Origin: an uncultured Dehalococcoidales bacterium
GTDB taxonomy: Bacteria; Chloroflexota; Dehalococcoidia; GIF9; UBA5629
NCBI GenBank assembly: GCA_964554375.1
Contig: CAZKOL010000003.1
Coordinates: 7,206-71,205 of the forward strand
Direction of reading: 5' to 3'
DNA: 64,000 bases
Part shown: in pieces, positions 23,194 to 57,744 of the stretch
Position numbering within the stretch: position 1 is the first letter of the stretch
Layout of the letters: every line of letters starts with the position of its first letter
The notes under the pieces: generated by a model
What the model was told of the DNA's origin: nothing
Seen by the model: the letters and a program-made list of their open reading frames with translations, nothing else
The model's database searches: none
Program-made: the position numbers and the translations under genes

Positions 23194-23221
23194 CGGCGTA
23201 TTCTATTAAAGGTGATATCCT

Positions 23222-23827
23222 ATGGATACAATACTTAATTTGCTCAGGGATTTCGGCCTGACATTCGTGCCGCTGTTCGTTGCGATGGACTCCATCAGCA
23301 CTGTGCCTATACTGCTGTCGCTTACGCATGATCTGGCCGATAAAAAAAGAAACAGCGTAATACGCAACGCCTTGATCTATGCGCTGGCGCTGGGCCTCAT
23401 TTTCATAGTAGTCGGGAAGGGCATCTTCCTTTTCCTTGGCATCACGGTGAACGATTTCCTGGTGGCAGGCGGGTTGATACTGTTCCTGCTTGGCGCCAAG
23501 GAGCTGGTGGTGGGGAAGATGTTCGAAGCGCAGGCTATCGCAGGCGAGAATGTGATAGCTGTGGTGCCTCTGGCCACGCCGCTGGTGGTAGGTCCCGCCG
23601 TGCTTACCACTCTGCTGATCCTGACCGACCAGTATCACATTGTGATGGTCACGTTTTCGTTTATAGTAAACCTGCTGATATCATGGCTGCTATTTGCTCA
23701 GGCAAACAGGCTGGTCAGGGTGTTGGGGCATGGAGGGGTGCTGGCGCTATCCAAAGTGTTTGCACTGCTGCTGGCGGCCATCGCTGTGAGCATGATCCAC
23801 CGGGGCATAATGGCGTTTATAGGATAA
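23222..23827 (+). CDS. MarC family integral membrane protein
   Basis: Six predicted TM segments and a conserved N-terminus FVPLFVAMDSISTVPILLSL. Confidence 0.65.
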   Translation: MDTILNLLRDFGLTFVPLFVAMDSISTVPILLSLTHDLADKKRNSVIRNALIYALALGLIFIVVGKGIFLFLGITVNDFLVAGGLILFLLGAKELVVGKMFEAQAIAGENVIAVVPLATPLVVGPAVLTTLLILTDQYHIVMVTFSFIVNLLISWLLFAQANRLVRVLGHGGVLALSKVFALLLAAIAVSMIHRGIMAFIG

Positions 23828-23843
23828 TGATAGATATAGGATA

Positions 23844-23922
23844 GACGGGCCTGTAGGGGCGTACCTTCAGGTGCGCCCGAGAGGCCACAAGAGCGGACAG
23901 GCCTGAAGGCCCGTCCCTACAG
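23844..23922. repeat. REP-like palindromic intergenic repeat (modules X and Y)
   Basis: GTAGGGGCGTACCTTCAGGTGCGCCCG plus GCGGACAGGCCTGAAGGCCCGTCCCTAC. The same modules recur at 27.5/30.15, 32.25, 36.69 and 42.07 kb. Confidence 0.6.
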
Positions 23923-23936
23923 AAAGGAGGAGTGAT

Positions 23937-24545
23937 ATGTGGCTATGCAGCAATTGCCGGCACCTTGAGATTGCAGAGCGCAAGCCGGAGCACTGTCCGG
24001 TCTGCGGCGCGGCGCCCGATAAGCTGGTTGAATACAAGGATGATAAGATCAAGGGCACAAAAACTCTAAAGAACCTGCAGGTGGGCTTTGCGGCGGAATC
24101 CAAGGCCAACATACGCGACCAGGCCTTCGCCATCAAGGCCGACCAGGAGGGTTACCCCGCCATAGCCGGCCTGTTCAGGGCCATCGCTGAATCCGAGGCC
24201 GTCCATGCCTTCCACCAACTGCGGCTGCTGGGCGTGATCGCCGATACCCAGGAGAACCTTCAGGCTGCCTTTGAACGAGAGAATCTGGCCACCGAGGCCT
24301 ATCCTGAGTTTATCAAGGATGCCGGCGACGAGGGAAACAATGCAGTGGCCACCATATTCGGATATCACCGTGATGTTGAAAGGGGCCATGCCAAGTTATA
24401 TGAAAAGGCTTTGGATCGCCTGATGGACCCGCAGGGTGTCGACTACTATGTGTGCAGCGTTTGTGGCTACGTGAGCGTGGGTTTGGCGCCGGACGAGTGC
24501 CCCATCTGCAAAGCCCCCAAAGACAAGTTCAGGCGCATCGATTAG
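23937..24545 (+). CDS. rubrerythrin with N- and C-terminal rubredoxin-like domains
   Basis: N-terminal CxxC-x12-CxxC, a ferritin-like diiron core (E..ExxH pairs) and a C-terminal CxxC-x11-CxxC. RBS GGAGGAG. Confidence 0.75.
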   Translation: MWLCSNCRHLEIAERKPEHCPVCGAAPDKLVEYKDDKIKGTKTLKNLQVGFAAESKANIRDQAFAIKADQEGYPAIAGLFRAIAESEAVHAFHQLRLLGVIADTQENLQAAFERENLATEAYPEFIKDAGDEGNNAVATIFGYHRDVERGHAKLYEKALDRLMDPQGVDYYVCSVCGYVSVGLAPDECPICKAPKDKFRRID

Positions 24546-24575
24546 TATCCGGCTACCAGGGCCAATTCAATAGTC

Positions 24576-26564
24576 TCAGCCGCGCAGCTTTAAATACATC
24601 TGCTCGAGGTCTTCCAGCCACAGTGCGGGTTCAGCATCCGATGGCATCCTCCAGTCGCCCCGAGGGGACAGGCTCACGGAGCCGATCTTCGGTCCCTCGG
24701 GCAGGCAGGTCCGCTTGAACTGGTTGGCGAAAAAGCGCCTGATGAAATTTACCAGCCACCTGTTGAGGTCTTCCGGCGTATAGCGGCCGTCGAAAAGCTT
24801 CTGCTTTCTGGCCTCATTGGCTAAAAATAGTATCTTGCCCGGGCGCGTACCGAAGCGGACAAATGGATAAAGATAGAAATCGGCCAGCTCTACCGGGCCG
24901 ATGACGTCCTCGCTCCTCTGCGCAATCTGTCCCTTAACAGGCCGTCTCAGCTCGGGGGAGATGGGTGTATCCAGCACGTCCCTCAGTATTTTCTGCGCGG
25001 GCGACCCCGCCAGCTCCTCGTCGGCCACCCAGCGGATGAGATAGCGCACCAGAGTCTTGGGCACAGAAACGTTGATGTCGTAATGCGACATATGGTCGCC
25101 CGAGAAGGTGCTCCAGCCCAGGGCCACCTCGGTCAGGTCACCCGTACCCAGCAGTATGGCGTTCAGCCCGTTGGCCCTGTTGAAAAGGAACTCGGTGCGG
25201 TAGCGCGCCTGTATATTTTCGAAGACCACGTCCTCACGGCCGTCATGCCCGAGATCATCCATGTGCGCTTTGCACGTCTTTGTGATATCAACGCGCTCGA
25301 AGCTCACGCCCAGGGCTTTACATAATTCAGTAGCGTTGTCCCTCGTCCTGCGCGTGGTGCCGAAGCCGGGTAGTGTGCATGCAGTAACGTTTTTCACGGG
25401 CAGTTTAAGATAATCCATGGTCCTGACTGCCACCAGAAGGGCCAGTGTGGAATCAAGCCCGCCGGAGACGCCCAGCACGATGCGGCTAATGTGGGCCCCG
25501 GAGAGCTTTTTGGCCAGGGCGGCCACCTGCATGGAAAACATATCGCGGCACCTTTGCGCGCGCTTATCGGTATCCCCGGGGACAAAAGGATGAGGGTCGA
25601 TCGTCCTCACGAGGCTGTTGGCTGGGATATCGGTCACGGCTGCCTCTATGATGCGGAAGGGTTTTATGTGACCGGGCGACTGGCGGAAGCTGGTCAGCGA
25701 CACACGGTCGTGTACCAGGCGGTCGACGTCGATATCGGAAATGGTCAGGCCAGTATTACGCTCGAAAATGTGCGATTCGGCCAGCAGGCTGCCGTTCTCG
25801 GCGATCAGTGTGTGTCCGCCGAAGACGACATCGTTGGACGATTCGCCCATGCCGGTAGATACATAGCAGCAGGCTGCGGCGCATCTGCCCGACTCAGAGG
25901 TGACCATGGACCGGCGCCACTCCGCTTTGGCCAGGACTTCGTTGCTGGCGGAGATGTTGAGCAGCACTGTCGCCCCGGCGAGGGACTGGTATTCATGTGG
26001 GGCCAGCGGCACCCACATATCCTCGCAGATCTCCACGCCTATCATGGCCGATGGAAATCCCCGCAACGAGATAAGGACATTGGCGCCGAATGCAACGACC
26101 CTGTCTCTAATATGGACTATATCGGAGCAGGCATCCTCAGAGGAAACAAACCACCGGTTCTCGTAGAACTCCTTGTAAGACGGTAAGTATGTTTTAGGTA
26201 TGACAGCCAGAACCTGCCCACCGTTCAGCACTGCCGCACAGTTAAAGATCTTTTGGTCTATGCAGATGGGCAGGCCGGCCACTATCAACATGCCGCCGTC
26301 TGCGCTGCGCTCAGCCAGCCGCATCAGACCTTCTTCAGCCTTTGCCAGCAAGGATTGCTGCTGAACCAGGTCAGCTATGGTGTAGCCCGTGATCGACATC
26401 TCGGGGAAGGCCAGCACCTGCACGCCCTTTGACCTGGCCTGTTTGACCATGTCCAGCATGGCGTCGACATTGAAATCGACGTCGGCCACCCTCAGTTCGG
26501 GGACAGCCGCGGCTATCCTCAGAAATCCCAGGTCTCTGTTCAAAAATATCTTTTGTACCGCCAT
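24576..26564 (-). CDS. nadE: glutamine-dependent NAD+ synthetase
   Basis: N-terminal CN-hydrolase domain plus an NAD synthase domain with a PP-loop (GVSGGLDSTL). Confidence 0.85.
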   Translation of the reverse strand: MAVQKIFLNRDLGFLRIAAAVPELRVADVDFNVDAMLDMVKQARSKGVQVLAFPEMSITGYTIADLVQQQSLLAKAEEGLMRLAERSADGGMLIVAGLPICIDQKIFNCAAVLNGGQVLAVIPKTYLPSYKEFYENRWFVSSEDACSDIVHIRDRVVAFGANVLISLRGFPSAMIGVEICEDMWVPLAPHEYQSLAGATVLLNISASNEVLAKAEWRRSMVTSESGRCAAACCYVSTGMGESSNDVVFGGHTLIAENGSLLAESHIFERNTGLTISDIDVDRLVHDRVSLTSFRQSPGHIKPFRIIEAAVTDIPANSLVRTIDPHPFVPGDTDKRAQRCRDMFSMQVAALAKKLSGAHISRIVLGVSGGLDSTLALLVAVRTMDYLKLPVKNVTACTLPGFGTTRRTRDNATELCKALGVSFERVDITKTCKAHMDDLGHDGREDVVFENIQARYRTEFLFNRANGLNAILLGTGDLTEVALGWSTFSGDHMSHYDINVSVPKTLVRYLIRWVADEELAGSPAQKILRDVLDTPISPELRRPVKGQIAQRSEDVIGPVELADFYLYPFVRFGTRPGKILFLANEARKQKLFDGRYTPEDLNRWLVNFIRRFFANQFKRTCLPEGPKIGSVSLSPRGDWRMPSDAEPALWLEDLEQMYLKLRG

Positions 26565-26722
26565 ACTTCACCCCTGAAAAGTCAGCCCAGTTTTAAGACA
26601 ACTGAAAGGCCTTTTCCCTCTGAATAGTGCAGTGCCCCCGGGCTTTGGCTATAATAAACCGTCGCCCGGATAAAATCAAAACCGGCCATAACATATTTTA
26701 AGGTTTTCCCGGAGAAATTCAT

Positions 26723-27469
26723 ATGTTCAAACTAGTTTTACTGCGCCACGGCGAGAGCGCCTGGAACAGGGAGAACAGGTTCACAGGGTGGACCGATGTG
26801 GACCTTTCGGAAAAAGGCATGCTGGAGGCCAGACAGGCCGGGGCTATACTGAAGAAGGAAGGATATACCTTTGACCTGGCGTTCACCTCCGTTTTGAAGC
26901 GCGCCATACGTACGTTGTGGATAGTGCAGGACGAGATGGACCTGATGTGGATACCGGTTAAGAAATCGTGGCGCCTGAACGAGAAACATTACGGGGCTTT
27001 GCAGGGGCTGAACAAGTCCGAAACGGCTAAAAAATTCGGCGAGGATCAGGTGCTGGTCTGGCGCAGGAGCTACGATGTACCGCCTCCGCCGCTGGAAAAG
27101 GGCGATCCTCGCAGCCCGGCTGGCGAGCCGTGCTACCGGGAGCTCAAGCCGGGACAGGTACCGCTCTCGGAGAGCCTCAAGGACACCTACCGGAGGTGTT
27201 TGCCCTACTGGCACAGGTCCATCGCCCCGGCGGTAAAGTCCGGTAAAAAAGTAATAGTCTCGGCCCACGGCAACAGCCTGCGGGCGCTGGTCAAGTACCT
27301 GGACAATGTGCCGGACAGCGACATCGTCGCACTCAACATCCCCACCGGCATACCGCTGGTCTACGAACTGGACGGCAACCTCAAGAGAACCAGCAGCCGC
27401 TACCTGGCGAGCGAGCAGGAGCTCGAGCAGGCCATGAAAGCAGTGGCCGACCAGGGCAAAGCTAAATAG
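26723..27469 (+). CDS. gpmA: 2,3-bisphosphoglycerate-dependent phosphoglycerate mutase
   Basis: [29 protein letters not shown] and the RSYDVPPP motif. Confidence 0.9.
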
Positions 27470-27691
27470 CGCAGGGGTAGGCCGCTATGCAAACATGTAG
27501 GGACAGGCCTTCAGGGGTTCTGTTATAACCCTATTGATAGGCGAATTATAGCATGGGTTCTATACTCGCTTCTATTCTTTGATTTCATCGCATTCGTACT
27601 ACTAAATATTAGTCTTGGGTTTAGTGATCCTTACGTAGAAAGGAAAATATGCTATATAGCGTTAATCATATTGATTTCGCTACTGCTTATA

Positions 27692-27925
27692 TTATTTTAC
27701 GAATATAAGCACCCCAGCAACAAGAACGGCTCCAACAAACAATGCGGCGATCATAAGAATAAACTTGCCTTGCATGTCTATCCCAAAATCAAGTGTAGAA
27801 GTCTGAGTGTCTTTAGAAAGATTTTCAGATGGGGCATTACTGGTACTGCTCAACAAAAACCAGCAAATTGCCACGACTACAATCGTGATGATAATAATAG
27901 CGATCAATTTACTCATAATCCACAC
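27692..27925 (-). CDS. small hydrophobic membrane protein (passenger ORF)
   Basis: 77 aa with two predicted TM helices, inside the AT-rich element. No recognisable family. Confidence 0.25.
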   Translation of the reverse strand: MWIMSKLIAIIIITIVVVAICWFLLSSTSNAPSENLSKDTQTSTLDFGIDMQGKFILMIAALFVGAVLVAGVLIFVK

Positions 27926-28176
27926 ATACCTCCAAAGGCCGAAAAGTAATGACTATTACATCAATCTTATCAATTGCATCTTACTCAAATAAAATAGGAG
28001 GAAAACAAAATGGCAAAAAATATCAGGACAGAATTAATGACAACCCTAATCAACAGGACAAGCAAGGCTCCTGTCAAAACTCAGCGTAGTTTCATGATGA
28101 AGCATTGGAATGATCCAGTAGCCAAGCTTGAAAAGATGGTTAAAGAAGTCAAAGTCATAAACAAGCGCATTGTGCT

Positions 28177-28515
28177 TTAGAGCAATCCACTGGACTTCAA
28201 ATATGGATATGCCTTGATGTATATAGGTAGTTTTTTATATTTGCGCACATGGCTAAGGACAGCCTTTACTTCCATTTGCTTTGGATCATCGAAATTTCCA
28301 GCTAATGTGCATAAGAAGTATTTGCCCTTTGGACATCTTCTATTGCGAAGATGGGCAAGCAATCGTCCTTTTATGCTTGTCCGTGCGCTTGTACTGCTGC
28401 CTATATACACAGGCACTCTATTGATATCGCCTATCATGTATATTCCGACAAGGCCATCTTTAAGAACTGAGATATTATCACGTGTAAATTCGTACCACCT
28501 ATTTTCTACTGGCAT
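28177..28515 (-). CDS. GIY-YIG-like nuclease domain protein (passenger ORF)
   Basis: GIYMIGD...VYIGSSTS...R..H spacing resembles the GIY-YIG motif; 112 aa. Confidence 0.4.
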   Translation of the reverse strand: MPVENRWYEFTRDNISVLKDGLVGIYMIGDINRVPVYIGSSTSARTSIKGRLLAHLRNRRCPKGKYFLCTLAGNFDDPKQMEVKAVLSHVRKYKKLPIYIKAYPYLKSSGLL

Positions 28516-28630
28516 AAACCACCTCCTCTTTGATTATCTTACACGGGCAGATCATTTATTTCAATCGGTAATTTACAAAAATGTATCTATAACTATTGTG
28601 TGAGTACGTAATGCTTAATAGAATTGAAAG

Positions 28631-29695
28631 GTGCAATACATCGTGGAAGAAGTAACTTGTAAATACTGTAACTCAAACAACATCGTAAAAGATGGCACTA
28701 ATATTGGTGAACAGTATTACCTTTGCCGTTCATGCAATAAACGATTTAACCTCAAAGATGCATTGGTACATATGAAAACCCCTGTAAGTGCCGTATCTGC
28801 TGCTGTTTCTATGTATTACAGAGGAATGTCGATTAGTAATATTCGGGACGAATTGAAACAGCTATATAATCTAGATGTATCTGATTTTGCAGTCTATAAC
28901 TGGATTGAACGGTTTACCAAAGATGCTATAAAGATAACAGGGAACTATCATCCTGATACTGGTTACGTTTGGCTTGCAGATGAAACAGTTATTGATGTAG
29001 CAGGCAAACAGTACTGGCTGATCGATGTAATTGACCTCAAAACCCGCTTTCTTTTGGCCTCTAGGCTATCAGCGCATCGTTATATGGATGATATAAGGGA
29101 AACATTCAAAGAAGCTTACAATCGGGCTGGAAAGATGCCAAAAGTCATAATGACAGACCACCTGGTTGGATATGTACGTGCTATCCCATCAGTATTTGGC
29201 ACTAATACAAAACACTTACAGGTTGAAAAGCTCACATCGAAGCCAAACAATAACATTATTGAACGCTTGCATGGTACGATTAAATCACGCACAAAGATAA
29301 TGCGAGACCTGAAAAGTCCTGAGACAGCGGAATTAATACTCGATGGTTTCTTTGTGCATTATAACTTCATAAGACCGCATGAAACGCTATCAAAATCTGG
29401 CGATGATATAACACCTGCTATGAAAGCTAACATCAAGTTTCCTTATGAGAATTGGGAGCAATTGATACGGAATAGCCAAGTTGCTAAAGCGGAACCACCA
29501 CCTGCAAGATTTGATGTCCCTCATCTACCTGTTTATCCAATCAGTGAGAGAGAAAGGAAACAGGAATATGAGCGGATACGTAAACAAGAAAGAAGAAGGC
29601 AGTTAAAACTCGGTATGCCGCCTCTACGCAAACGCGGCCCAGCTAAACCAAAGAATATACAAGTAGCTATTCAGGCAGTAAGGACGGATAAATAA
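28631..29695 (+). CDS. IS6-family transposase with N-terminal zinc ribbon
   Basis: CKYCNS...CRSCN zinc finger. DDE-region blocks WLADETVIDVAGKQYWLIDVID, IMTDHLVGY and NNNIIERLHGTIKSR match the IS6 catalytic core (DETY...D, TD..Y, NNRIE..H..IK.R). Basic C-terminal tail. Confidence 0.75.
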   Translation: MQYIVEEVTCKYCNSNNIVKDGTNIGEQYYLCRSCNKRFNLKDALVHMKTPVSAVSAAVSMYYRGMSISNIRDELKQLYNLDVSDFAVYNWIERFTKDAIKITGNYHPDTGYVWLADETVIDVAGKQYWLIDVIDLKTRFLLASRLSAHRYMDDIRETFKEAYNRAGKMPKVIMTDHLVGYVRAIPSVFGTNTKHLQVEKLTSKPNNNIIERLHGTIKSRTKIMRDLKSPETAELILDGFFVHYNFIRPHETLSKSGDDITPAMKANIKFPYENWEQLIRNSQVAKAEPPPARFDVPHLPVYPISERERKQEYERIRKQERRRQLKLGMPPLRKRGPAKPKNIQVAIQAVRTDK

Positions 29696-29868
29696 GCACA
29701 ATGTTCTATTATGTCTTAAATACCGTTTTGAATAGTGGGCTTACACAACATCAAAAGGATGCGATTTTAAGTTACATTTTACTACTGGCTATTGTTATGT
29801 GTTTGGAAAGCGTAGCTTTATTTATAACATTGGTGACAGTTGTGAAATTGAGAAGATCAGCCAAGAAG

Positions 29869-30081
29869 TTACAGGCTTGTAAAAAATGATGCAATTTCTT
29901 CCCATAGTAAAATCAAACCCACAGCGTTGAGTAAAATTATGAATACTATTACATATCCAGTCGGGTCAAGCACTGACATCTGTAATAGAAGTAGGTTTAG
30001 TACCCATCCTACTAAGATATCAACAGCAATAACCACTACCAGAGATATTAACCCAAGAATGATTTTTATGATGTTATCCAT
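29869..30081 (-). CDS. small hydrophobic ORF (passenger, uncertain)
   Basis: 70 aa, entirely hydrophobic, inside the element. Could be non-coding. Confidence 0.15.
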   Translation of the reverse strand: MDNIIKIILGLISLVVVIAVDILVGWVLNLLLLQMSVLDPTGYVIVFIILLNAVGLILLWEEIASFFTSL

Positions 30082-30147
30082 CGATGTTAGTATAGGAGGG
30101 TGACAATATGAACGTCAATAGAGTTATAACAGAACCCCTTCAGGCCT

Positions 30148-30197
30148 GTCCGCGATGCGGGCGCAGATGAAGCAACGCCCCTACGGCTTAACTATCC
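30148..30197. repeat. REP-like repeat, right half of a copy split by the IS6-type insertion
   Basis: CCTTCAGGCCTGTCCGC plus CGGGCGCAGATGAAGCAACGCCCCTAC. The left half, GTAGGGACAGGCCTTCAGG, ends at 27515. Confidence 0.6.
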
Positions 30198-30205
30198 GCC
30201 TGCCC

Positions 30206-30946
30206 TTATTCTTCAGACGGGGATATGTCAGTGCGGTAGCTGTGCTTGATGGCGTCGGCGCGGGCCTCCGCGGATATGCTCTCCTCCCGGTATATGAGGC
30301 CGTCCTTGAGCCAGATGACCCGATCGCTGTATTCCCTCTGCTCAGGCTCATGCGTAACCATGAGTATGGTTTGCCCCAGTTCATCGCAGAGTTTGCGCAT
30401 CAGCCGCAGGACTATGCCCTTATTCTCCGTATCAAGGTTGGCGCAGGGTTCATCGGCGAACAGTATCTTGGAGCGGTTGACCAGGGCACGGGCGATGGCG
30501 ACGCGCTGCTGCTCGCCGCCGGAAAGCTGGCTGATCAGGTGATGAAGGCGCTCACCCAGCCCCACCTTCACCATGAGGTCCCCGGCTATCTTCATGTAGT
30601 CCTTCTTGCGCAGGCCCAGCAACAGGAGCGGCAGGTAAGCGTTTTCCAGCGCGTTCAATTCAGGTATCAGGGCATATTCCTGGAATACGTAGCCCAGGTT
30701 TTTCAGGCGGAACTCGGTCTTCTGCCAGTCGGACAGGCGCGATATATCATTGCCTTCCAGCAAGATATCTCCCGAAGTCGGCGTGTCCAGCAGCGCCAGC
30801 TGGTGCAGCAGCGTGGATTTGCCCGATCCGCTGGGGCCCATGATCGAGACGAACTGCCCGGGTGATACCTCGAAGCTCACACCTTTCAAGGCATGTACCG
30901 GCACGTGCCCCGCGTAGGTCTTTTTGAGGTTGCTGACCTTGATCAT
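30206..30946 (-). CDS. ABC transporter ATP-binding protein (MacB/LolD-like)
   Basis: Walker A GPSGSGKST, signature LSGGEQQR and Walker B ILFADEP. Confidence 0.85.
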   Translation of the reverse strand: MIKVSNLKKTYAGHVPVHALKGVSFEVSPGQFVSIMGPSGSGKSTLLHQLALLDTPTSGDILLEGNDISRLSDWQKTEFRLKNLGYVFQEYALIPELNALENAYLPLLLLGLRKKDYMKIAGDLMVKVGLGERLHHLISQLSGGEQQRVAIARALVNRSKILFADEPCANLDTENKGIVLRLMRKLCDELGQTILMVTHEPEQREYSDRVIWLKDGLIYREESISAEARADAIKHSYRTDISPSEE

Positions 30947-30953
30947 GACTTGA

Positions 30954-32192
30954 TCATCCCCATATGGCCCTGATAATATTTTCTCGCGCCACCCTCCACG
31001 AAGGGATGAAGCCCGCCAGTATGCTGACCACCAGCATGCTCACCACACTGGTCATGAACTCACCCGGCATGATGGCCAGGCTGACCTTGCCCATTGGGAA
31101 GTCGAGGGGATGGGCGATGAAGTACGGCTTAATGAACATCTCGATAACGGCAATGCCCAGACCTATGCCAACCAGGGCGTAAAAAAGTGCCAGGAAGATG
31201 TAGGACAGGATGATTATGCGCTCGTGCATGCCGATGGCCTTCATAATGCCGATTTGCCTCCGCCTGCTGACTGTGGCTATAAAGATCACGATGAATATGG
31301 TCACCCCGGTCACTATCAGGCCGATCAGTAGAATGATCCTCTTGATGATGTCGAAGCTCTGAGCGATACCCAGCACCAGGCCGATGAAGTCCTCCCAGGG
31401 CTTGATATCCTCCATCTCTATGCCGGCCTGCCGCAGCCTCTGGATATAATACGACTCGGGGTAGGCTTCGTCGGTCTTGACCAGTATCTCCGATGCCCGG
31501 TCGTGGATGCCCAGCACCGACTCCATCTCTTTCTGCGTGACAAAGATGGACATGTCAGAGAGAGGAAATACGGTGGAATAGATACCCTTGATGGTATAGT
31601 CGCGCACTATCCCATTGTGGTAGTACACCGTGATCTCGTCTCCTACTACTGCCCCTTTGAGCGACTGCACCTCAAGGGCCGCCCCGAAGCCGCCGGATAT
31701 CTCCCTGCCCATGATGACCTGGTCGCGGTCCGAGTCGCTCAGATATTCACCGGAGACCATGTACCTTGAGATGTTGGATACTTCGATATTTTCTTCAGGG
31801 CTGATGGATGTTATCGGCCAGCTCACGGACCTAATGTCTTTGCCTGTTTTATCAGGGTCATAGGTTACGATAGCCCCGGTCGAGTACCTCGAGCTGCACC
31901 CGATGATACCGGGTACGGTGTTTATCTTGCGCTTGAGCGAAGATACCTGCGTCAGGTACTGCTCGCTGTTGCCCGACTGGTCCTTGCCCGGCTTGATGAC
32001 TATGTTGGAAACATAGTTTGTCTTGGCCTGCTGGTAGATGAGGCTGACGGCCCCGCTCATTATGCCGGAGATGATATTGATCTGCATGAAGGCCACGGCC
32101 GCCACCAGGATGGTGAGCATGAGCGTGCCTATGCTGCCGCGCGTGATATACTTGTAAAAGAGGAAAACGGCCGCCCTTAAATCGTTCCACAT
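30954..32192 (-). CDS. ABC transporter permease, FtsX/MacB-like
   Basis: N-terminal TM, a large extracytoplasmic domain and a C-terminal FtsX 3-TM bundle. Start moved to the ATG at MWNDL because the longer ORF-track N-terminus runs through a REP copy. Confidence 0.7.
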   Translation of the reverse strand: MWNDLRAAVFLFYKYITRGSIGTLMLTILVAAVAFMQINIISGIMSGAVSLIYQQAKTNYVSNIVIKPGKDQSGNSEQYLTQVSSLKRKINTVPGIIGCSSRYSTGAIVTYDPDKTGKDIRSVSWPITSISPEENIEVSNISRYMVSGEYLSDSDRDQVIMGREISGGFGAALEVQSLKGAVVGDEITVYYHNGIVRDYTIKGIYSTVFPLSDMSIFVTQKEMESVLGIHDRASEILVKTDEAYPESYYIQRLRQAGIEMEDIKPWEDFIGLVLGIAQSFDIIKRIILLIGLIVTGVTIFIVIFIATVSRRRQIGIMKAIGMHERIIILSYIFLALFYALVGIGLGIAVIEMFIKPYFIAHPLDFPMGKVSLAIMPGEFMTSVVSMLVVSILAGFIPSWRVARENIIRAIWG

Positions 32193-32245
32193 CTTAAGAC
32201 TCGTACACCCTTCAAGCGCCTTTATTATACTATGCTGAAAAATGT

Positions 32246-32306
32246 TGGGACGGGCCTTCAGGCCTGACCGCGTATCGGGCGCAGCTAAAGCAACGCCCCT
32301 ACGTCC
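32246..32306. repeat. REP-like palindromic intergenic repeat
   Basis: GGGACGGGCCTTCAGGCCTGACCGCG plus CGGGCGCAGCTAAAGCAACGCCCCTAC. Confidence 0.6.
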
Positions 32307-32382
32307 ATTAATTATATTATACGTTGGCCCTTCAAGTCTGATATCATATTTAGCGCCCAAATTTCATTTAAAGAAGAGTGAC

Positions 32383-33639: not shown

Positions 33640-33731
33640 ATTCAGCGCAGTCTTGATAAACATCGCGAATAAATGTAAAATGGCTGCGTGTTTTCAAGGC
33701 AGAAATCAAGCGGTGTGACAGGCTGATATCA

Positions 33732-34988: not shown

Positions 34989-34992
34989 TTTA

Positions 34993-36057
34993 ATGGTAAT
35001 GGATAACAGCGCTACATTCGAGATGCCGGAGCTGGAGGAGCTGTTATCCGAAAGGTTTCTCAGGCCGACCTTTGAAAGCATCGTCAGCGTGCAGGAGAAC
35101 AGGGGCTCCGTGCCCGAGAGCGAAGGCGGGTTGGTGGAGCCGTGGACCCACGTGGAGTGCGCCATGGCCATAGATGCCGGCAGCTACCACGACGAGGCGG
35201 AGAAAGCTTACGAATGGCTGGCGGGCATGCAGCTCCCCGATGGAAGCTGGTATGCCAACTATAAGGACGGCCAGCCCAAGGATATGTACAAGGTCTCGCA
35301 TGCCATCTCCTATATGGCTGTGGGCGCCTGGCACCACTACCTGGTGACAAACAACAGGGTCTTCCTCGATGATATGTGGCCCGTGGTGAGGAGAGCCGTT
35401 GATTACGTGCTGGATATGCGCGGGCCTAAGGGCGAGATTTACTGGGCCAGGGATGCGGCCGGCAGCGTTTACCCCACCGCCCAGATAGCCAGCTGCAGCT
35501 CATCATACCTCAGCATCAAATGCGCGTTGAAGATGGCGGATTTGATAGGAGAGGAGCGAAGGGACTGGGCGGAGGCCAACGAGGTCTTACGCACAGCCAT
35601 CCTCGACATGCCGCTGCCGTATGGAGACCCCATTGACGAGAAGACCATTTACGCCTTTGCCATGGACTGGTACTACCCCGCACTGTGCAGCGTCATCAAC
35701 GGGCGGGAAGCCGTTAGCAGGATATACGACAGCTGGGATAAATTCATCGTGCATGGCAAGGGATCGGTCTGCAACCTCGAAAAGCAGTGGGTCACTGCCG
35801 CAGAGAGCAGCGAATTAGCCATTTCCCTGGCGGCCCACGGCGAGTACAAGCAGTCGGCCATGATCTATTACTGGGTACACCAGATGAGGGACGAGGACGG
35901 GGCCTACTGGTACGGCGTGGCGTTTCCCGAACACGAGATCTGGCCTCTGACCAAGCCTACCTGGACCTCGGCCGCGGTCGTGCTGGCAGCCGACATGCTC
36001 AAGCCCATGTCAGCAACAAACCTTCTTTTCGATCACCACGGTATAGTGCTTTCTTAG
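34993..36057 (+). CDS. alpha/alpha-toroid (six-hairpin / prenyltransferase-like repeat) protein
   Basis: Repeated LPDGSWY and DEDGAYWYG motifs resembling (alpha/alpha)6 toroid repeats; the function is unknown. Start ATG chosen just after the upstream stop. Confidence 0.35.
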   Translation: MVMDNSATFEMPELEELLSERFLRPTFESIVSVQENRGSVPESEGGLVEPWTHVECAMAIDAGSYHDEAEKAYEWLAGMQLPDGSWYANYKDGQPKDMYKVSHAISYMAVGAWHHYLVTNNRVFLDDMWPVVRRAVDYVLDMRGPKGEIYWARDAAGSVYPTAQIASCSSSYLSIKCALKMADLIGEERRDWAEANEVLRTAILDMPLPYGDPIDEKTIYAFAMDWYYPALCSVINGREAVSRIYDSWDKFIVHGKGSVCNLEKQWVTAAESSELAISLAAHGEYKQSAMIYYWVHQMRDEDGAYWYGVAFPEHEIWPLTKPTWTSAAVVLAADMLKPMSATNLLFDHHGIVLS

Positions 36058-36672
36058 GATGCCCAGGCTGTCCACCATGGGCAGTTCCCTGTAATCGCCG
36101 CTCCCCAGCGCCAGCTTGTACACCTCGAAAGGCGCCTGACCACCTTTGGCAGGGTCGGGGTAGATGTCGTGAAAAACCAGGAATCCGCCCGGCAGCAGGT
36201 GCGGCGACCAGCAGCGGTAGTCCGATAGAGATGTCTGGTAGCTGTGCCCACCGTCGATAAAGACCAGGCCGAGTGGCGTCGCCCAGTTCCTGGCGGCGAC
36301 TCCGGACTGTGTGACCATGGGAACGACATTGTCCTCGAGGCCTGCTTTTTTCAAAGTGTCCTGCAGCAGGGGGAGACTATTTATGATGCCCTTGCGGCTG
36401 TCGAAGAGCTCGGGGTCGAAATACATCTGGCCGGGCTGCTGTTCCTCAGATCCGCGGTGGTGGTCTATGGTGAAAAGCGTGCTGTCAGCTCTTTTACAGG
36501 CTTCTCCCAAATATACGGCGGATTTGCCGCAGAAGCTGCCTATCTCCAGGCAGGGGCCGAGCGCGCAGGCTTCCAGTCCCAGCTCATACAGCCTGACGCC
36601 TTCGTCCTCGGCCAGAAAACCCTTGACTCCCGAGGCCAGCGCCGCAATCTTGCTGATAATAGCGTCCGTCAT
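36010..36672 (-). CDS. class I SAM-dependent methyltransferase (Methyltransf_24/TylF-like)
   Basis: LEIGSFCGKSAVYL and FIDGGHSYQTSLSDYRCWSPHLLPGGFLVFHDI. Start moved to MTDAIISK because the longer ORF-track N-terminus runs through a REP copy. Confidence 0.55.
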   Translation of the reverse strand: MTDAIISKIAALASGVKGFLAEDEGVRLYELGLEACALGPCLEIGSFCGKSAVYLGEACKRADSTLFTIDHHRGSEEQQPGQMYFDPELFDSRKGIINSLPLLQDTLKKAGLEDNVVPMVTQSGVAARNWATPLGLVFIDGGHSYQTSLSDYRCWSPHLLPGGFLVFHDIYPDPAKGGQAPFEVYKLALGSGDYRELPMVDSLGILRKHYTVVIEKKVCC

Positions 36673-36686
36673 CTCTTTTCCGTATT

Positions 36687-36719
36687 CGCGGGCGCAGCTA
36701 AAGCGACGCCCCTGCATCG
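36687..36719. repeat. REP-like repeat (X module only)
   Basis: CGCGGGCGCAGCTAAAGCGACGCCCCTGCATCG. Confidence 0.55.
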
Positions 36720-36721
36720 TA

Positions 36722-39700
36722 TTACAGATCCCTCCTGCGCGATATGACCACATAGGCATTTATAAGTAGCAGCAGGACAACGACGATAACGATGATAATC
36801 CAGATCCAGAAATTTGAAGCAGCCGGTACCTGGCCGGACTTGGTCCTGGCGTCCGGCTGCTTCTGCGGCTGCGTGATGTTCTCTGACAGTGTAAACGTGC
36901 CTACCGGGCTGGGGTCGCTGATCACAGGGGCAACAGCCTTGACCTGCCAGAAATACGGGGTAGAAAAAGGTAATGGGCTCTTTAGCTCGAAAGCCGTGGT
37001 CTCGGTATTTTCCTGGACGATCACATCCTGAAGCTGAGCATCCCTGGCCAGTGTAAATTGATACATCCTGGCATTTTTGATGGGCGACCAGCTGAAACGG
37101 ATGGGAGGCAGGCAATTGCTGCATATGCCGTCCACCGGTGTCAGCAGCGTAGGCCCCATGTATTCAGAGGTGACCATGAAGCCCGGCCTGACCGAGAAGA
37201 ACAGTGTCGCTGACCATGGGCTGTGTATTGGCGTGTCCTTCCACGACCTCGACCCGCGCACCCTCCAGTAGTAGGATCGCCCTACTTCCAGTACGCCGGG
37301 CGAGATCCAGCAGGACGGTGCTTCCTGGTCGGCGGGGGTTACGATCCAGGAGCCCGTGACGTCGTCGACCGGGGTCATCTGCAGTTGCTGGGTGAGCGGC
37401 AGGGTGAAGTTGACATCCTTGGCTATCAGGAGATCGTAGCCATAGATGTCCTTAAGAGGACGCCACTTGAAATCGACCTGCTGAGAACGTCCGGTTACGG
37501 GATCGGCCCCTATGAGGCTGCCGGGGGCAGGCGCCGTGGGCCAGGGCCCCAGCTTGGCCACCGAGTCCACGAATTGCCACAGGCAGCCCACTTTAGTGGT
37601 GAAATTATATGGCCTGTTGTCGATTGCCCAGAGAGTGTTATAGGTATTTGACGATATGTGCAGCGACGTTGGCTCACGCGTGAATTGGACCAGATTTGTC
37701 TGCGGAATCCCATCTATGAGCTGGTCCCATTGTGGTGCGGGTGGAACCCTTACCCTGGCCTCCAGTGTGCGGTCGGCGCCGCTGCTGCTAAGGGTCGGAT
37801 CGATATTCGTGTTCCAGGCGCCGTAGAGAACGCTGTTGAGCATGCAGATACCGTAGAAGCCCCTGTCGATAGGGTCGAGGGGGTCCCAGTTGGTGCTGGT
37901 ATCCATGGTCCAGCGGTAGATGAGGCCGTCTGCGTTGGTGATGGTGTCGTCGATTCCGGCATAGATGTTTTTGTTGCTGTCGTATAGATCGTCCACGGCG
38001 ACGTGCACATTGCCCTGCATGGGCAGATCTTTAAGGACGGTGAACTGCGGTATGATGGCCGAGAAATCGGCCCAGGCTACGCTGGTGTCGGCGTTCCCCT
38101 CGCTGCCCACGAAGACCAACTCTTTGTCCGAACTGTCTTTTACAGGGTTACACACCATGTGCGCCGGGGCCAGCATGTTGGTATTGAGCCTTTTCACGGT
38201 CTGCCAGGCAGCGCCGCTCTGGCTGAGCTTACGAACATTATAGTCATCCAATACGTACATGGAAGATTCATCCAGCAGCGATATGTCTTTGACAATTGTG
38301 CCGGCCAGCACAGCCGTCCATGTATCGCCCGAGTCGGCGGAATAGGTGATGTTGTCTGTGCCCAGGTCGGCAAAGACCACGACGTTGCTTATGGTTGACG
38401 ATGCCGTATCGCTGGGAGCCAGGCGCAGTATGGCGCCGCTGTCGCTGGACGGAAGGGTGAAGGTACGTTCCCACAGGCGTCCCAGAGGATCGCTGGCGCT
38501 ACGCCATACGCTGTCGATACCGGGTGTTGTATTGTCGGTATTTAGTGAAGACAGATAGAGCGTGCTATTTCCGACTACTGCCGATCCCTCTGGCTTCTCC
38601 ACCGCGGCCACATCCGACAGTACGCTGATCGTAGTATTGATGATGCCGATCTGGTTCCAGGTGGACCCGCTGTCCATGCTGTACTGGAAGGCCGACTCGT
38701 CTGACTGTGCTTTAGTCAATTTGGATAAAGGCCATTGTCCCGGCGCCCAACCGGTTCCACCCAGCGTGGAGTTCTCCGAGCTTGTGCCGCAATAGGCCCT
38801 GCTGCCGTCTGAACTCCAGGCCAGCAGCACGTTGGCGCGGCCTGTGCCGCCGTCGCCGGTGTTGCCTCCGCCGGTTGGCGATTTCAGACTGTCGGATTTG
38901 AGCCATGTGACACACCCCGAGCAGGTTGCCTGTGCATTCGAGCTTTGCCAGACGTTGGCCATGGCCCGCGCGGCGCTGGCGGTGGCCTCGCCGGCCAGGA
39001 GTATGCCTGTCGCATTGGTGCCGGTATAGGCAATGGAGGATATGCGTTGCCCAGAGGCAGCCTGGATAGGCGGCGTGATAGTGAATGTGGTTGGCGTGGG
39101 GCTGATGTAAAATACGGCTGAGGCCGTAGTATTATCAAATACGTTGACAAAACACCCGCGCAGGCTTGAATCGGTGCCCACGTAATCGGAGGGCAGCTCG
39201 ATGCCGGTGCGTATAATGTTAGTGGCCAGGTATCCGCCGAGGAGCACCGGGTAGGCCGCGTAGCCGGCTGCGTTATCCCACTGGGTGGTATTAAGCGTTG
39301 TATCGTGTTTGCCCAGGTGTAGGGCGGCCGTTGCCGGCGCGGTGAATGCAATAACTGCCATGGTCTGGTCCGAGATGTAATCCGGTGAGAATTTCACCGA
39401 TGTAACGGCCGTCCATCCGCCTGGTGGATCCTGGTTTACCCAGGCGCCGGAGAAGGTACTGCTGTATGTTCTAGTCCAAACGCTGCCCCCAAGTCCCGCT
39501 ACTCTGCGGGTCCCGATTGCTATATCCCTGCTCTGGCCACTCGAGTTGTATTTCGATATATCCAGACAGCTGATGTACTCGTCGGGGTTCAATGTCATTC
39601 CGGTGCCCGGTGCCACGATGTTCCAGGTGGTGCCGCCGTCGGTGGAGTAATATGCTATGCGTGGGCCTGCCGCAGCAGGGAGGACGGCGTCGTCTATGAC

Positions 39701-40087
39701 GGCGATGATGAAGTTTGCATTATCAGGCGCTACTGCTATATTCCATACCGCCCTGTTGCCGGCTGCTGTAGTAAGGTTGGTGTTGATTGAGGAGAGCCAA
39801 TTATATCCGGCGTCGGTGGATTTATACAGGTTCATACTTGTTACAGAGCTATTGTCGGTGCTGACAGCGTAAAAGGTGCGGTTGTCCGGTCCCAGCGCCA
39901 GGTCGTTTATGCCGCAGGTGCGTATGAACATGCCGTTGGAACCGTTCCAGGGTGTATCCACCACGCTCCAGGCCAGCGTCCTGCTGGTGGCTGCGCTGCT
40001 TTGGACGCAGGGAACAAGCAAGCTAATTAAAGCTAAAATGGAAAGGACAAGAATAAACGGGTATGGCCGGCGTACAATTCTCATCAA
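36722..40087 (-). CDS. large cell-surface BNR/Asp-box repeat protein with C-terminal TM anchor
   Basis: 1121 aa. N-terminal signal peptide and multiple S-x-D-x-G-x-T-W boxes (YSTDGGTTWNIV, YSADSGDTWTAV, SMDSGSTWNQIG, KSTDAGYNWLSS). S/T/G/N-rich, with Ig/FN3-like C-terminal modules and a final hydrophobic anchor followed by RRRDL. Confidence 0.6.
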   Translation of the reverse strand: MMRIVRRPYPFILVLSILALISLLVPCVQSSAATSRTLAWSVVDTPWNGSNGMFIRTCGINDLALGPDNRTFYAVSTDNSSVTSMNLYKSTDAGYNWLSSINTNLTTAAGNRAVWNIAVAPDNANFIIAVIDDAVLPAAAGPRIAYYSTDGGTTWNIVAPGTGMTLNPDEYISCLDISKYNSSGQSRDIAIGTRRVAGLGGSVWTRTYSSTFSGAWVNQDPPGGWTAVTSVKFSPDYISDQTMAVIAFTAPATAALHLGKHDTTLNTTQWDNAAGYAAYPVLLGGYLATNIIRTGIELPSDYVGTDSSLRGCFVNVFDNTTASAVFYISPTPTTFTITPPIQAASGQRISSIAYTGTNATGILLAGEATASAARAMANVWQSSNAQATCSGCVTWLKSDSLKSPTGGGNTGDGGTGRANVLLAWSSDGSRAYCGTSSENSTLGGTGWAPGQWPLSKLTKAQSDESAFQYSMDSGSTWNQIGIINTTISVLSDVAAVEKPEGSAVVGNSTLYLSSLNTDNTTPGIDSVWRSASDPLGRLWERTFTLPSSDSGAILRLAPSDTASSTISNVVVFADLGTDNITYSADSGDTWTAVLAGTIVKDISLLDESSMYVLDDYNVRKLSQSGAAWQTVKRLNTNMLAPAHMVCNPVKDSSDKELVFVGSEGNADTSVAWADFSAIIPQFTVLKDLPMQGNVHVAVDDLYDSNKNIYAGIDDTITNADGLIYRWTMDTSTNWDPLDPIDRGFYGICMLNSVLYGAWNTNIDPTLSSSGADRTLEARVRVPPAPQWDQLIDGIPQTNLVQFTREPTSLHISSNTYNTLWAIDNRPYNFTTKVGCLWQFVDSVAKLGPWPTAPAPGSLIGADPVTGRSQQVDFKWRPLKDIYGYDLLIAKDVNFTLPLTQQLQMTPVDDVTGSWIVTPADQEAPSCWISPGVLEVGRSYYWRVRGSRSWKDTPIHSPWSATLFFSVRPGFMVTSEYMGPTLLTPVDGICSNCLPPIRFSWSPIKNARMYQFTLARDAQLQDVIVQENTETTAFELKSPLPFSTPYFWQVKAVAPVISDPSPVGTFTLSENITQPQKQPDARTKSGQVPAASNFWIWIIIVIVVVLLLLINAYVVISRRRDL

Positions 40088-40178
40088 ATATCTATTAACC
40101 GTACCCCGTTACTATAAGTTGTGTAGTAAACTGGAGAAAAGCAGATTTACCTGAAATCTACCATAAATCCTGCCCTAT

Positions 40179-40207
40179 TTGCAAAATGGCAAATCGCATG
40201 TTAGATT
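40179..40207 (+). promoter_or_regulatory. candidate sigma70-type promoter upstream of pilB
   Basis: TTGCAA, a 17 nt spacer, then TAGATT. Confidence 0.3.
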
Positions 40208-40349
40208 AAACTAAAAGGCATATGGGTATGGTCCAGGCAGTCGAAGCGGGCCGGAATAGACTAAAGGTGTGGTAGCCTATTTTGATAATGGTATTTTAAT
40301 ACGTACAATTTAAGTGGGCCTGATAATAATTTAATAATTTGAGGTACTC

Positions 40350-42047
40350 ATGGCAAACAATCCGGATAATCCCAGAGCTAAAGGTGGCGCCCCTGGTGGG
40401 GCAACTCAGCAGGGCATTGCCAAGCTGAACGTCCAGTATGCGGCGCCCATGCCGCAGGCCCTGGGATTGATACCAGAGGACGTGGCCAAAAGGTACAAGG
40501 TGCTGCCATTGGCGCTGGAGAACAACACGCTGCGGATTTTTATGGCCAATCCAAGCGATGTACTGACCATTGAAAACCTGTCGATTTATACCAGGAGGCG
40601 CATTGAGCCGGTGGCCGCCTCAGAAGCGGATATCAAGGAAGGCATTGAGTACAATTATCGAGCTCTAAAGGATGCTTCCAGACTGGACGCCGGGACGGGC
40701 TTAGACACAGGACCGGTAAACACGCTCCCTCCGCGCACAGCGCCGCGTGTAGCTGGGCCCGCGGCACCCCCCGCTGCTACGGGGACTGCCGGTACCGCTG
40801 GTCCGGTCGTTCCTGCACAAGCCGCCGGCATATTACCCCTGCCCCCATATGACGATAGAGTAATTCCACCTGAGATAACCAGCGATTCTCCCATAGCTCA
40901 CCAGCTCGATAAGATGCTGGACGAAGCCGTCAAGGCCAGAGCATCCGATGTACACATCGAGCCGGATGACGACAGGCTGCGTATACGCTACAGGATCGAT
41001 GGCATATTGCATGAAGTGGCCTCGCTGCCCCTGACCGTGCACCACGGTCTCATTTCGCGTATAAAAATCCTCTCAGATATGAATATCGCTGATCACAGGC
41101 GGCCCCAGGATGGCCAGTTCTCCTTTGATTCAGATAATAAATATATAGATGTTCGTGTGGCTACCGTGAATACGGTTAATGGCGAGATGGCTGTATTGCG
41201 TCTGCTGGACAAATCGGTGGCAGCGATGGCTCTGCCCCAGGTCGGGTTTTTGCGTGAGAGCCAGGAGATGTTTGAGCAGATGCTTATGATGCCATATGGC
41301 ATGGTGCTTATCAGCGGCCCCACCGGCGCGGGCAAGACGACCACACTTTATGCCGCCGTCAATTCCCTGGATCGTGTAGGCAAGAATATAATAACCGTGG
41401 AGGACCCTGTCGAATATCGCTTTTCAGACATTAACCAGATACAGGTTAATGTAAAGGCCGGCCTGACCTTTGCCAGCGGGCTGCGCGCCATAGTGAGGCT
41501 CGACCCCGATGTCATCCTGGTGGGCGAAATCCGCGACAGCGAGACAGCTCTGATAGCCGTCCAATCGGCCCTGACCGGACATCTCGTGCTGTCTTCAGTG
41601 CACGCCAACGACACGGTGGGTGCAGTCTTTCGCCTGATTGACCTCGGGGTAGAACCCTTCCTGATCAGTTCAGCCCTGATTGGTATCGTGGCCCAGCGTA
41701 TGGTGCGGCGAGTCTGCCCTCATTGTGCTCGCAAGGTGACGGCGCCACTGGTAGAGCAGCTGGCCTATGAAAAAGAGATGGGAGAGGCGAGGGCGGAATT
41801 CATGTACGGCGAAGGATGCAAGGTGTGCGTGCATACCGGCTATCTCGGCCGCACTGCTATATTCGAGATACTGACAATAACCGATAATATTCGCAGGATG
41901 ATAGTGGGCGGTTCGAGCAACACCGATATACGGGCCGCCGCACTCAGCGAAGGACTGGTGCCCATCGCCCGCTACGGCATGCTGCAGGCCAAGGCCGGCA
42001 TTACCACACCCTACGAGGTACTGCGAAACGCCTATACCATTTCCTGA
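40350..42047 (+). CDS. pilB: type IV pilus assembly ATPase PilB/GspE
   Basis: N-terminal GSPII_E_N/MshEN-like domain, Walker A GPTGAGKTTT and a tetracysteine motif (CPHCAR...CKVC). Confidence 0.85.
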   Translation: MANNPDNPRAKGGAPGGATQQGIAKLNVQYAAPMPQALGLIPEDVAKRYKVLPLALENNTLRIFMANPSDVLTIENLSIYTRRRIEPVAASEADIKEGIEYNYRALKDASRLDAGTGLDTGPVNTLPPRTAPRVAGPAAPPAATGTAGTAGPVVPAQAAGILPLPPYDDRVIPPEITSDSPIAHQLDKMLDEAVKARASDVHIEPDDDRLRIRYRIDGILHEVASLPLTVHHGLISRIKILSDMNIADHRRPQDGQFSFDSDNKYIDVRVATVNTVNGEMAVLRLLDKSVAAMALPQVGFLRESQEMFEQMLMMPYGMVLISGPTGAGKTTTLYAAVNSLDRVGKNIITVEDPVEYRFSDINQIQVNVKAGLTFASGLRAIVRLDPDVILVGEIRDSETALIAVQSALTGHLVLSSVHANDTVGAVFRLIDLGVEPFLISSALIGIVAQRMVRRVCPHCARKVTAPLVEQLAYEKEMGEARAEFMYGEGCKVCVHTGYLGRTAIFEILTITDNIRRMIVGGSSNTDIRAAALSEGLVPIARYGMLQAKAGITTPYEVLRNAYTIS

Positions 42048-42062
42048 GCGTTGATCAATCCT

Positions 42063-42106
42063 GCGACGTAGGGGCGTACCTCCAGGTGCGCCCGCATTAG
42101 GGTAGT
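42063..42106. repeat. REP-like repeat (X module, inverted orientation)
   Basis: GTAGGGGCGTACCTCCAGGTGCGCCCG, between pilB and pilC. Confidence 0.55.
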
Positions 42107-42199
42107 ACGATAGTACTATTATAATTTTGACCAAGGGTCTATTTACTATTCATCCATGTAATGTATCATTATAAAGGGATACTATCTTCGGGAAAATAG

Positions 42200-57717: not shown

Positions 57718-57744
57718 GAGTCAATGGTCTAATAGACATAAATG

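Follow-up and report, generated by a model that had tools for sequence, protein, structure and literature searches.

Inverted GTAG-headed hairpin repeats between genes of an uncultured Dehalococcoidales bacterium, probable members of the GTAG-tagged REP superfamily

What are the GC-rich palindromes that recur between genes in a 64,000-nt stretch of DNA from an uncultured Dehalococcoidales bacterium (GenBank assembly GCA_964554375.1, contig CAZKOL010000003.1, positions 7,206 to 71,205 of the forward strand; the whole stretch is called the window below), and how did they come to be there? An earlier reading of the bare letters (the sequence-only reading) described them as a family of two-module repeats resembling repetitive extragenic palindromes (REPs), with at least five intergenic copies, and all five sites were found where it had placed them. 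REPs with a GTAG head are thought to be moved by REP-associated tyrosine transposases (RAYTs), HUH/Y1 transposases which are usually flanked by their own REPs (PMC2817692; PMC3733652). Our answer is that the units are probably GTAG-tagged REPs, which spread as inverted heterodimers and are moved by a RAYT encoded elsewhere.

The window holds seven complete units of 26 nt and one further unit split by an insertion sequence (IS); their five sites, all intergenic, span 23.8 to 42.1 kb. Two variants, X and Y, share one plan: an unpaired 5' GTAG, a GC-rich stem of 9 bp and a loop of 4 nt (TTCA, TTTA or TCCA). The consensus of the family is GTAGGGRCR-N4-TYYA-N4-YGYCC, in which the stem base GGRCR/YGYCC is conserved, while the stem top, closed by the TYYA tetraloop, varies through compensatory changes. 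Written from the GTAG end, the X variant reads GTAGGGGCGTACCTTCAGGTGCGCCC and the Y variant GTAGGGACGGGCCTTCAGGCCTGTCC, and a third variant, X' (GTAGGGGCGTTGCTTTAGCTGCGCCC), has a stem with a T-T mismatch. What had been described as two modules are thus two stem variants of one unit type, paired as a heterodimer; the stem of module X, proposed as GGGCG/CGCCC, is 9 bp long and not 5. The label REP-like holds, as the units are short, headed by GTAG, extragenic, hairpin-forming, present in multiple copies and arranged in inverted dimers.

Sites A, B and C are inverted X/Y doublets with the GTAG heads outward, and sites D and E are single units. Doublet A (23853-23920) has as its left half an X unit on the forward strand (23853-23878; GTAGGGGCGTACCTTCAGGTGCGCCC; 42.3 bits, E 4e-12 with the covariance model described below) and as its right half a Y unit on the reverse strand (23895-23920; GTAGGGACGGGCCTTCAGGCCTGTCC; motif and covariance model matches), separated by a spacer of 16 nt. 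Doublet B (27497-30184 minus the IS, 7-nt spacer) pairs a forward Y unit whose loop is cut by the IS with an X' unit on the reverse strand (30159-30184; GTAGGGGCGTTGCTTCATCTGCGCCC; 34.5 bits). The 5' part of its Y unit lies at 27497-27515, the last 8 nt (27508-27515) being the duplication CCTTCAGG, and the 3' part at 30137-30151, beginning with the second CCTTCAGG copy (30137-30144). Doublet C consists of a forward Y unit with the head GTTG (32244-32269; 26.5 bits), a 7-nt spacer and a reverse X' unit (32277-32302; GTAGGGGCGTTGCTTTAGCTGCGCCC; motif and covariance model matches). Unit D is a single X' unit on the reverse strand with the decayed head GCAG (36690-36715; 27 bits), and unit E a single X unit on the forward strand with the loop TCCA (42068-42093; motif and covariance model matches). 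The head is GTAG in six of the eight window units, GTTG and GCAG being the remaining two.

The family is real, and all its units in the window fall within 23.8-42.1 kb. Matches to module X (GTAGGGGCGT-N10-GCGCCC, with at most three mismatches) numbered five in the window where 0.49 were expected, and none of 100 shuffles reached five. Module Y gave two sites (0.00 expected), and the merged X and Y motif six matches (0.03 expected). A covariance model was built from 84 distinct family members and run over the whole 64 kb with filters off. It recovered the seven full units at E <= 1e-6 and no other convincing match; the half-unit truncated by the IS scored E 0.49, and a headless palindrome at 57744-57777 scored E 0.08. 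The latter is a perfect palindrome with a 15-bp stem (GGACGGGGCGGAGAA-AT-TTCTCCGCCCCGTCC) without a GTAG head, between the stop of ftsZ and the start of nrdR; possible readings are a bidirectional terminator and a hairpin unrelated to the family. A scan of the whole window with Rfam gave no match at or above any gathering threshold, and a tRNA scan of the window found none.

Further copies, on whose existence the sequence-only reading had staked itself, were found by the hundreds in other genomes. A degenerate exact pattern covering X, X' and Y was run over one genome per GTDB species, with about one chance match expected, and at least 117 stretches matched. Among the matches listed, with phyla taken from record titles, most were from Chloroflexota, mainly Dehalococcoidia (71 loci), followed by Planctomycetota including Brocadiales (12), Acidobacteriota (11), Coatesbacteria (5), Zixibacteria (4), Gemmatimonadota (3) and Stahlbacteria (2), together with a few Bacillota and one Segatella isolate. 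Several matches per metagenome-assembled genome (MAG) occurred in that list. Copies are present, too, in the complete chromosomes OY970123.1 and OY969567.1 of Chloroflexia MAGs and CP070839.1 of a Zixibacteria MAG. In order that structure should not be judged on a pattern that encodes it, the matched loci were rescanned with the anchors only, fixing GTAGGG, the loop TYYA and the final CC and leaving the seven inner stem pairs free. This rescan found 211 copies in 853 kb, stretches that had been chosen for holding a copy, against 0.2 in shuffles; the G of GTAG and the next GG are invariant in all 211 by construction of the scan. Only 26 of these copies (12%) lie deep inside long open reading frames (ORFs), which take up 86% of the DNA.

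The exact X variant of the window was found in Chloroflexota only (21 copies). The stem top differs between lineages, and variants such as GTAGGGACAGACCTTCAGGTCTGTCC occur under three phylum labels, a sharing to which errors of MAG binning could have contributed. The cultured Bacteroidota strain Segatella buccae ATCC 33574 (loci L081, L098) and a Ruminococcus MAG of the Bacillota (L087, L107) carry inverted pairs of the GTAGGGGCAGCGCTTTATGCCTGCCC type about 130 nt apart, which suggests related elements among bacteria of the gut and mouth. Several genomes have, directly beside GTAG units, another family of small repeats (CATTGCGAGCGAAGCGAAGCAATC / GATTGCTTCGTCGCTTCGCTCCTCGCAA) that are inverted repeats themselves (L001 at about 3250-3300, L004 at about 2760-2860, L086 at about 1370-1400, L030 at 410-440 and L018 at about 1250-1290).

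The free inner stem pairs were formed in 95% of cases in the anchor-only copies, and the figure was the same in the 63 copies that fall outside the original pattern. Among the 84 distinct sequences, 93.9% of cells were paired compared with 73.5% in column shuffles, a level reached by none of 500 shuffles, and both sides had changed in 177 cells where 55 were expected. When the partner was slid by one to three columns as a control, pairing fell to 29-46%. The hairpin is under selection. For doublet A a single long hairpin is possible (-40.5 kcal/mol, z -4.45).

Neighbouring copies tend to form pairs. Copies closer than 200 nt to each other form 104 neighbouring pairs; in 60 of these the GTAG heads are outside, with gaps mostly of 2-20 nt. 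An alignment of seven doublets from unrelated loci runs over their full length with the spacer, and all similarity stops at GTAG on one side and CTAC on the other. Because doublets of unrelated loci align as a whole with no similarity beyond them, the doublet behaves as the copied unit. Locus L030 carries an alternating array resembling bacterial interspersed mosaic elements (BIMEs), with a period of 88 nt and linkers of 12 and 24 nt, and its X-spacer-Y unit matches doublet A of the window; L026 and L017 have head-to-tail arrays. A CRISPR array was also considered for this arrangement and rejected: linkers are constant at 10-24 nt, orientation alternates, and there are no cas genes in the window.

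Strains and relatives of the window organism differ in their copies. Doublet C is absent from strain L004, and in strain L001 a different doublet separates the two glycosyltransferase genes; one of its stems is compensatorily changed to GGGTG/CACCC in place of GGGCG/CGCCC. A clean pair of empty and filled sites for doublet C was sought between the strains, and the flanks were too diverged to place the boundaries. Unit E is kept in all strains L001-L006. The window is syntenic with three contigs of the Dehalococcoidia MAG PPR_0282 (JBFYUA01) at about 68-78% nucleotide identity, which puts its organism in the class Dehalococcoidia. This relative has a decayed unit at the position orthologous to unit D (L121), plus an extra doublet, and a cluster of three units (L018) between genes where the window (45729-45813) has none. 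Since unit D is kept at its orthologous site while other clusters differ, some copies are old and inherited, and others were gained or lost since the lineages of the window and PPR_0282 split.

From this family, its structure, its extragenic position, its dimer architecture, its presence and absence among strains and species and its wide distribution, we infer a transposase and possibly an effect at the RNA level. The spreading unit would be the inverted heterodimer, like a REPIN or a BIME: Y, a spacer of 6-16 nt and X, with the GTAG heads outside, and single units would be leftovers of doublets. The hairpin of the GTAG strand would form on single-stranded DNA, where an HUH/Y1 RAYT encoded elsewhere in the genome would recognise it and cut and rejoin beside it, and doublets would in this way be copied into new intergenic sites without target duplication. 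Once placed, the hairpins may be transcribed within mRNAs and act as 3' or inter-cistronic stem-loops, and other elements may find structured targets in them, the IS6-family element in doublet B being an example.

The transposase was looked for in several ways. A query with the E. coli RayT protein (phmmer) against all ORFs of the loci gave no match; against a large protein database it returned Enterobacteriaceae only, which is uninformative for the Dehalococcoidia lineage. The pattern HUH...YxxxNP found nothing in the ORFs of the loci. All-against-all clustering of the ORFs adjoining REPs, in search of a recurrent neighbour, gave only ordinary housekeeping families, and Pfam assigned ten ORFs bracketed by REPs to GrpE, ferredoxin, ThiE and similar families, with no transposase. 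RAYT probes against the 28 phage loci introduced below also had no match.

A trace of a RAYT was found in a Dehalococcoidales MAG (L110). There a 45-aa open frame, a remnant of a RAYT C-terminus, lies 33 bp from a doublet with TYYA loops, and it aligns with the catalytic C-terminal motif (RKEEVLEEVALCILNNPVRTGLA...) of the RAYTs of S. maltophilia (tblastn E 8e-7) and R. baltica (E 2e-6), both values from a small search. The catalytic Tyr is changed to Cys in it. When the remnant was used as a database query with the Cys set back to Tyr, its sole relative was an orthologous remnant (L224, 83% identity) from JGI metagenome 3300005645, which also contains the window organism; the stop codon of the L224 remnant overlaps a degenerate unit.

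A RAYT family with the motif LWQRNY[YH]EH was retrieved from the Roseiflexus "RAYT" in the supplement of PMC3733652 (members P0121-P0149, L141-L223 and L257; JGI annotation "REP element-mobilizing transposase RayT"). In 77 of 80 metagenome loci of this family, 26-nt hairpins headed by GTAGGGGC lie in and around the gene. They share with the window units the GTAGGGGC head, the stem base, the 26-nt size and the doublets with GTAG outside, but differ in having a stem of 8 bp and a loop of 6 nt. This subtype lies in frame inside its RAYT gene, where an inverted copy with the TTCA loop would give TGA. Nearly always, these RAYTs (L141-L223, L253, L257) have a GTAGGGGC doublet inside their own coding sequence just past the HUH motif, read as VGAGPRACP...GQPQGVAPT; 72 of 84 ORFs are open across it, and L143 is without the insert (examples are L142 2594-3219 and L148 3001-3384). 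A literature search for the peptides of the in-gene doublet found no paper containing them. Locus L257 is a partial exception to the separation of the two subtypes described in the next paragraph, with neighbours such as GTAGGGGCGGGTTTCAAACCCGCCC that are one base off variants pairing with X in L001, L226 and L245.

Several results weigh against the view that the units are RAYT-mobilised REPs. No RAYT gene was found in the window (Pfam, about 50 ORFs), and the loci with REPs, 0.85 Mb from genomes and 0.23 Mb from phages, yielded no intact one. The hairpins of the LWQRNY[YH]EH RAYTs have a different loop type, CCYGT, and the TYYA and CCYGT subtypes are seldom found together in the DNA sampled (3 of 214 and 1 of 171). 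In doublets B and C each half folds into its own hairpin, and the long single hairpin of a REPIN is not formed, because their halves are different stem variants. The copy count for the window organism is eight units in its 64 kb, where GTAG-tagged REPs usually number more than 100 in a genome. A wobble asymmetry between strands (82 G-T against 13 A-C) was inflated by the search pattern and amounts to 15:7 in the independent copies; it was tried as a sign of one functional strand and was weakened once the pattern-fitting copies were removed. Mobilisation of the TYYA-loop units by a RAYT is therefore put forward on family resemblance and on the remnant, and would fit both.

Could the units instead be RNA elements selected by the host, with their spread secondary? 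Such elements would protect upstream mRNA from 3' exonucleases, set the ratio of cistrons such as pilB and pilC, or pause or terminate transcription together with a factor. Both single units in the window are in sense with their flanking genes, and the pairs, being compatible with G-U, favour folding of the GTAG strand (for unit E, -18.4 kcal/mol compared with -13.2 for the opposite strand). Roles in mRNA stabilisation have been reported for E. coli REPs (background in PMC3733652). Against this, the copies of the bacterial loci show no orientation bias relative to co-directional flanking genes (53 sense, 44 antisense, p 0.42), the doublets are symmetric, one of them lies in a divergent promoter region and not at a 3' end, and there is no T-tract. 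The unpaired GTAG head and the whole doublet are moreover conserved across phyla, which points to a protein that reads DNA rather than to a generic RNA hairpin. We consider the explanation by host-selected RNA elements doubtful.

Phage contigs offer some further support for it. The degenerate pattern matched 28 IMG/VR contigs (IMGVR_UViG_3300037492_000559 is one of the phage contigs), some of them from metagenomes that also hold the window organism (3300028168, 3300028299), so the elements are not confined to chromosomes. A gene for a major head protein (phrog_212, E 7e-61) is present on contig L237, which carries twelve units in tandem groups between genes (2188-8996), all co-oriented with its ORFs; two of the units follow the head gene directly. 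Other contigs encode a portal protein (L245) and a minor tail protein (L244). Family 26-mers between structural genes were also seen in L226/L245, L244 and L228. Several phage 26-mers are identical to window units, and that of unit 32277-32302 recurs in L237. Over the phage contigs, structural genes flank the units, which often follow the major head gene immediately and are mostly in sense (41 sense, 18 antisense, p 0.004; L237 alone gives 11). The phage copies support a constraint at the RNA level or linked to replication.

A wider proposal can be built on the same copies. One REP superfamily (GTAGGGRC head, variable stem, TYYA tetraloop) would be common to at least seven phyla and to tailed phages, with sometimes identical 26-mers and with sense tandem arrays after capsid and other structural genes. 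It would be trafficked by phages or seeded into them and serve as RNA-level punctuation of expression, and its transposase would be an unrecognised or split RAYT. This proposal we advance tentatively and think rather unlikely as a whole. If the phage copies are genuine, they could offer a system for testing whether REPs move between host and virus and whether they tune the expression of phage structural genes.

Every window unit is intergenic, and the neighbouring genes, assigned by Pfam on the flanking ORFs, are of several arrangements. Site A lies between a MarC-family gene (stop at 23827) and a rubrerythrin gene (start at 23937) of the same direction, and doublet A ends 3 nt upstream of the rubrerythrin ribosome-binding site AAGGAGG. 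Site B is between the convergent genes of a histidine phosphatase and an ABC ATPase, with unit 30159-30184 downstream of the latter. Site C separates the divergent genes of an FtsX permease and the first GT4 glycosyltransferase. Unit D is between the stop of a 1121-aa BNR/sortilin-like gene and the start of a methyltransferase gene, and unit E between pilB (T2SSE ATPase) and pilC (T2SSF); in both cases the genes have the same direction and the unit is in sense with both. The placement at operon boundaries that had been proposed holds in part: one copy lies between pilB and pilC, which are likely co-transcribed, one doublet is in a divergent promoter region and one abuts a ribosome-binding site. 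Three long ORF calls (30954-32360, 32242-33639 and 36010-36759) cross units and are over-extended by comparison with the gene calls of sister contigs, in which the FtsX gene is called as 412 or 468 aa depending on extension through the repeats. Elsewhere in the window (6833-9001), two adjoining genes encode KaiC-family ATPases, one fused to a response-regulator receiver domain, and the pair adjoins a PAS histidine kinase that bears a mechanosensitive-channel domain.

A role as terminators, which the sequence-only reading had suggested, may be asked of any GC-rich stem-loop downstream of a gene, and three of the five sites have this position; the units would then be intrinsic (Rho-independent) terminators that look alike through convergent design of GC-rich hairpins. 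The tails of the units read GAGAGG, GCATTA and GCGATG, and no T/U tract follows any unit, so they are not intrinsic terminators. A terminator scan of 23000-42500 gave 14 terminator-like calls, none of which coincides with a unit. Different phyla share nearly identical 26-mers whose unpaired head is conserved, and one pair of units stands between divergent genes. Convergent terminators are a very improbable explanation.

Doublet B is interrupted by an IS6-family element of 2621 bp on the forward strand (27516-30136), with terminal inverted repeats GGTTCTGTTATAAC and a transposase of the DDE_Tnp_IS240 family at 28631-29695 (Pfam E 5e-20). It is flanked by an 8-bp target-site duplication, CCTTCAGG, at 27508-27515 and 30137-30144. 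Eight base pairs is the length expected of IS6-family elements. Two contigs, L138 (ENA) and L139 (JGI), encode identical phosphatase and ABC proteins and are without the element; there the junction reads GTAGGGACAGGCCTTCAGGCCTGTCC-GCGATGC-GGGCGCAGATGAAGCAACGCCCCTAC, an intact pair of units. Since these IS-free contigs show the intact doublet, a Y unit was there first and the element entered its loop, duplicating CCTTCAGG. The claim that a repeat copy had been the target of an IS6-type element is proved by this empty site. The element is absent from L138 and L139 and fixed at the site in most strains; it is unusually long (2.6 kb), with small ORFs without a Pfam match at 27671-27949 and 28214-28603. 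That the repeats are miniature inverted-repeat transposable elements which arose from a DDE insertion sequence such as this one and are moved by it is hardly credible: the doublets are short inverted repeats and the element is physically tied to one of them, but its ends (GGTTCTGTTATAAC) are unrelated to the repeat, it interrupts an older doublet, which L138 and L139 have intact, no direct duplication flanks the doublets, and units also occur singly and in head-to-tail arrays.

Taken as GTAG-tagged REPs, the elements account for the odd intergenic palindromes of the window and for the IS6 target, and their annotation as terminators should be avoided. Proteobacterial REPs have been studied well, those of uncultured lineages, to our knowledge, hardly at all. 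A REP consensus supported by structure is now defined for Dehalococcoidia and several candidate phyla, and the family is a starting point for finding its RAYT. Such repeats also break metagenome assemblies, yield spurious ORFs and inflate gene models, as in the three ORF calls of the window.

How does the family compare with known systems? REPs with a GTAG head, their HH and TT dimers, their G-T pairs and their association with RAYTs have been described (Di Nocera, De Gregorio & Rocco 2013, PMC3733652; Nunvar et al. 2010, PMC2817692). With this GTAG-tagged superfamily, whose palindromes measure 20-40 bp, the window units share the small size, the terminal unpaired GTAG, a short loop, a stem within the range of 6-13 bp, compensatory sub-families and G-T pairs. 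They are likewise extragenic, mostly between unidirectional or convergent genes, and form dimers with GTAG outside ("HH"), often heterodimers, as well as clusters of reiterated dimers. One difference is the flanking RAYT, which for the window subtype was found neither in the window nor in loci totalling about 1.1 Mb. Consensus sequences of 24 families have been published for the superfamily. One family, GTAG-23 of the Chloroflexi species Thermomicrobium roseum, forms a few large blocks inserted in CCGSSCC palindromes (PMC3733652), whereas copies of the window family are dispersed.

The REPINs of Pseudomonas fluorescens (Bertels & Rainey 2011, PMC3116915) are also two inverted REPs conserved with their spacer as one unit, their singletons resemble remnants, and doublet A can fold like them as one long hairpin; the window doublets differ in being heterodimeric and in their spacer of only 6-16 nt. 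The REP/BIME elements of E. coli, with their transposase TnpA-REP (RayT, b0228), have in common with the family the GTAG head, alternating arrays of two types (L030) and the inter-cistronic placement. Beyond GTAG the sequences are unrelated, the window family forms a simple hairpin without the bulged long loops of E. coli, and no homolog of E. coli RayT could be detected in either the window or the loci. A literature search by sequence string (GTAGGGGCG and similar) returned only irrelevant eukaryotic matches. Judged by sequence, the units have the characters of the GTAG-tagged REP superfamily, and because GTAG REPs were already reported in Chloroflexi and Planctomycetes (PMC3733652), they would be a known kind of bacterial element, selfish or regulatory in nature, and not a new one. 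What is less expected is the breadth of the family across uncultured phyla and its presence in phage genomes.

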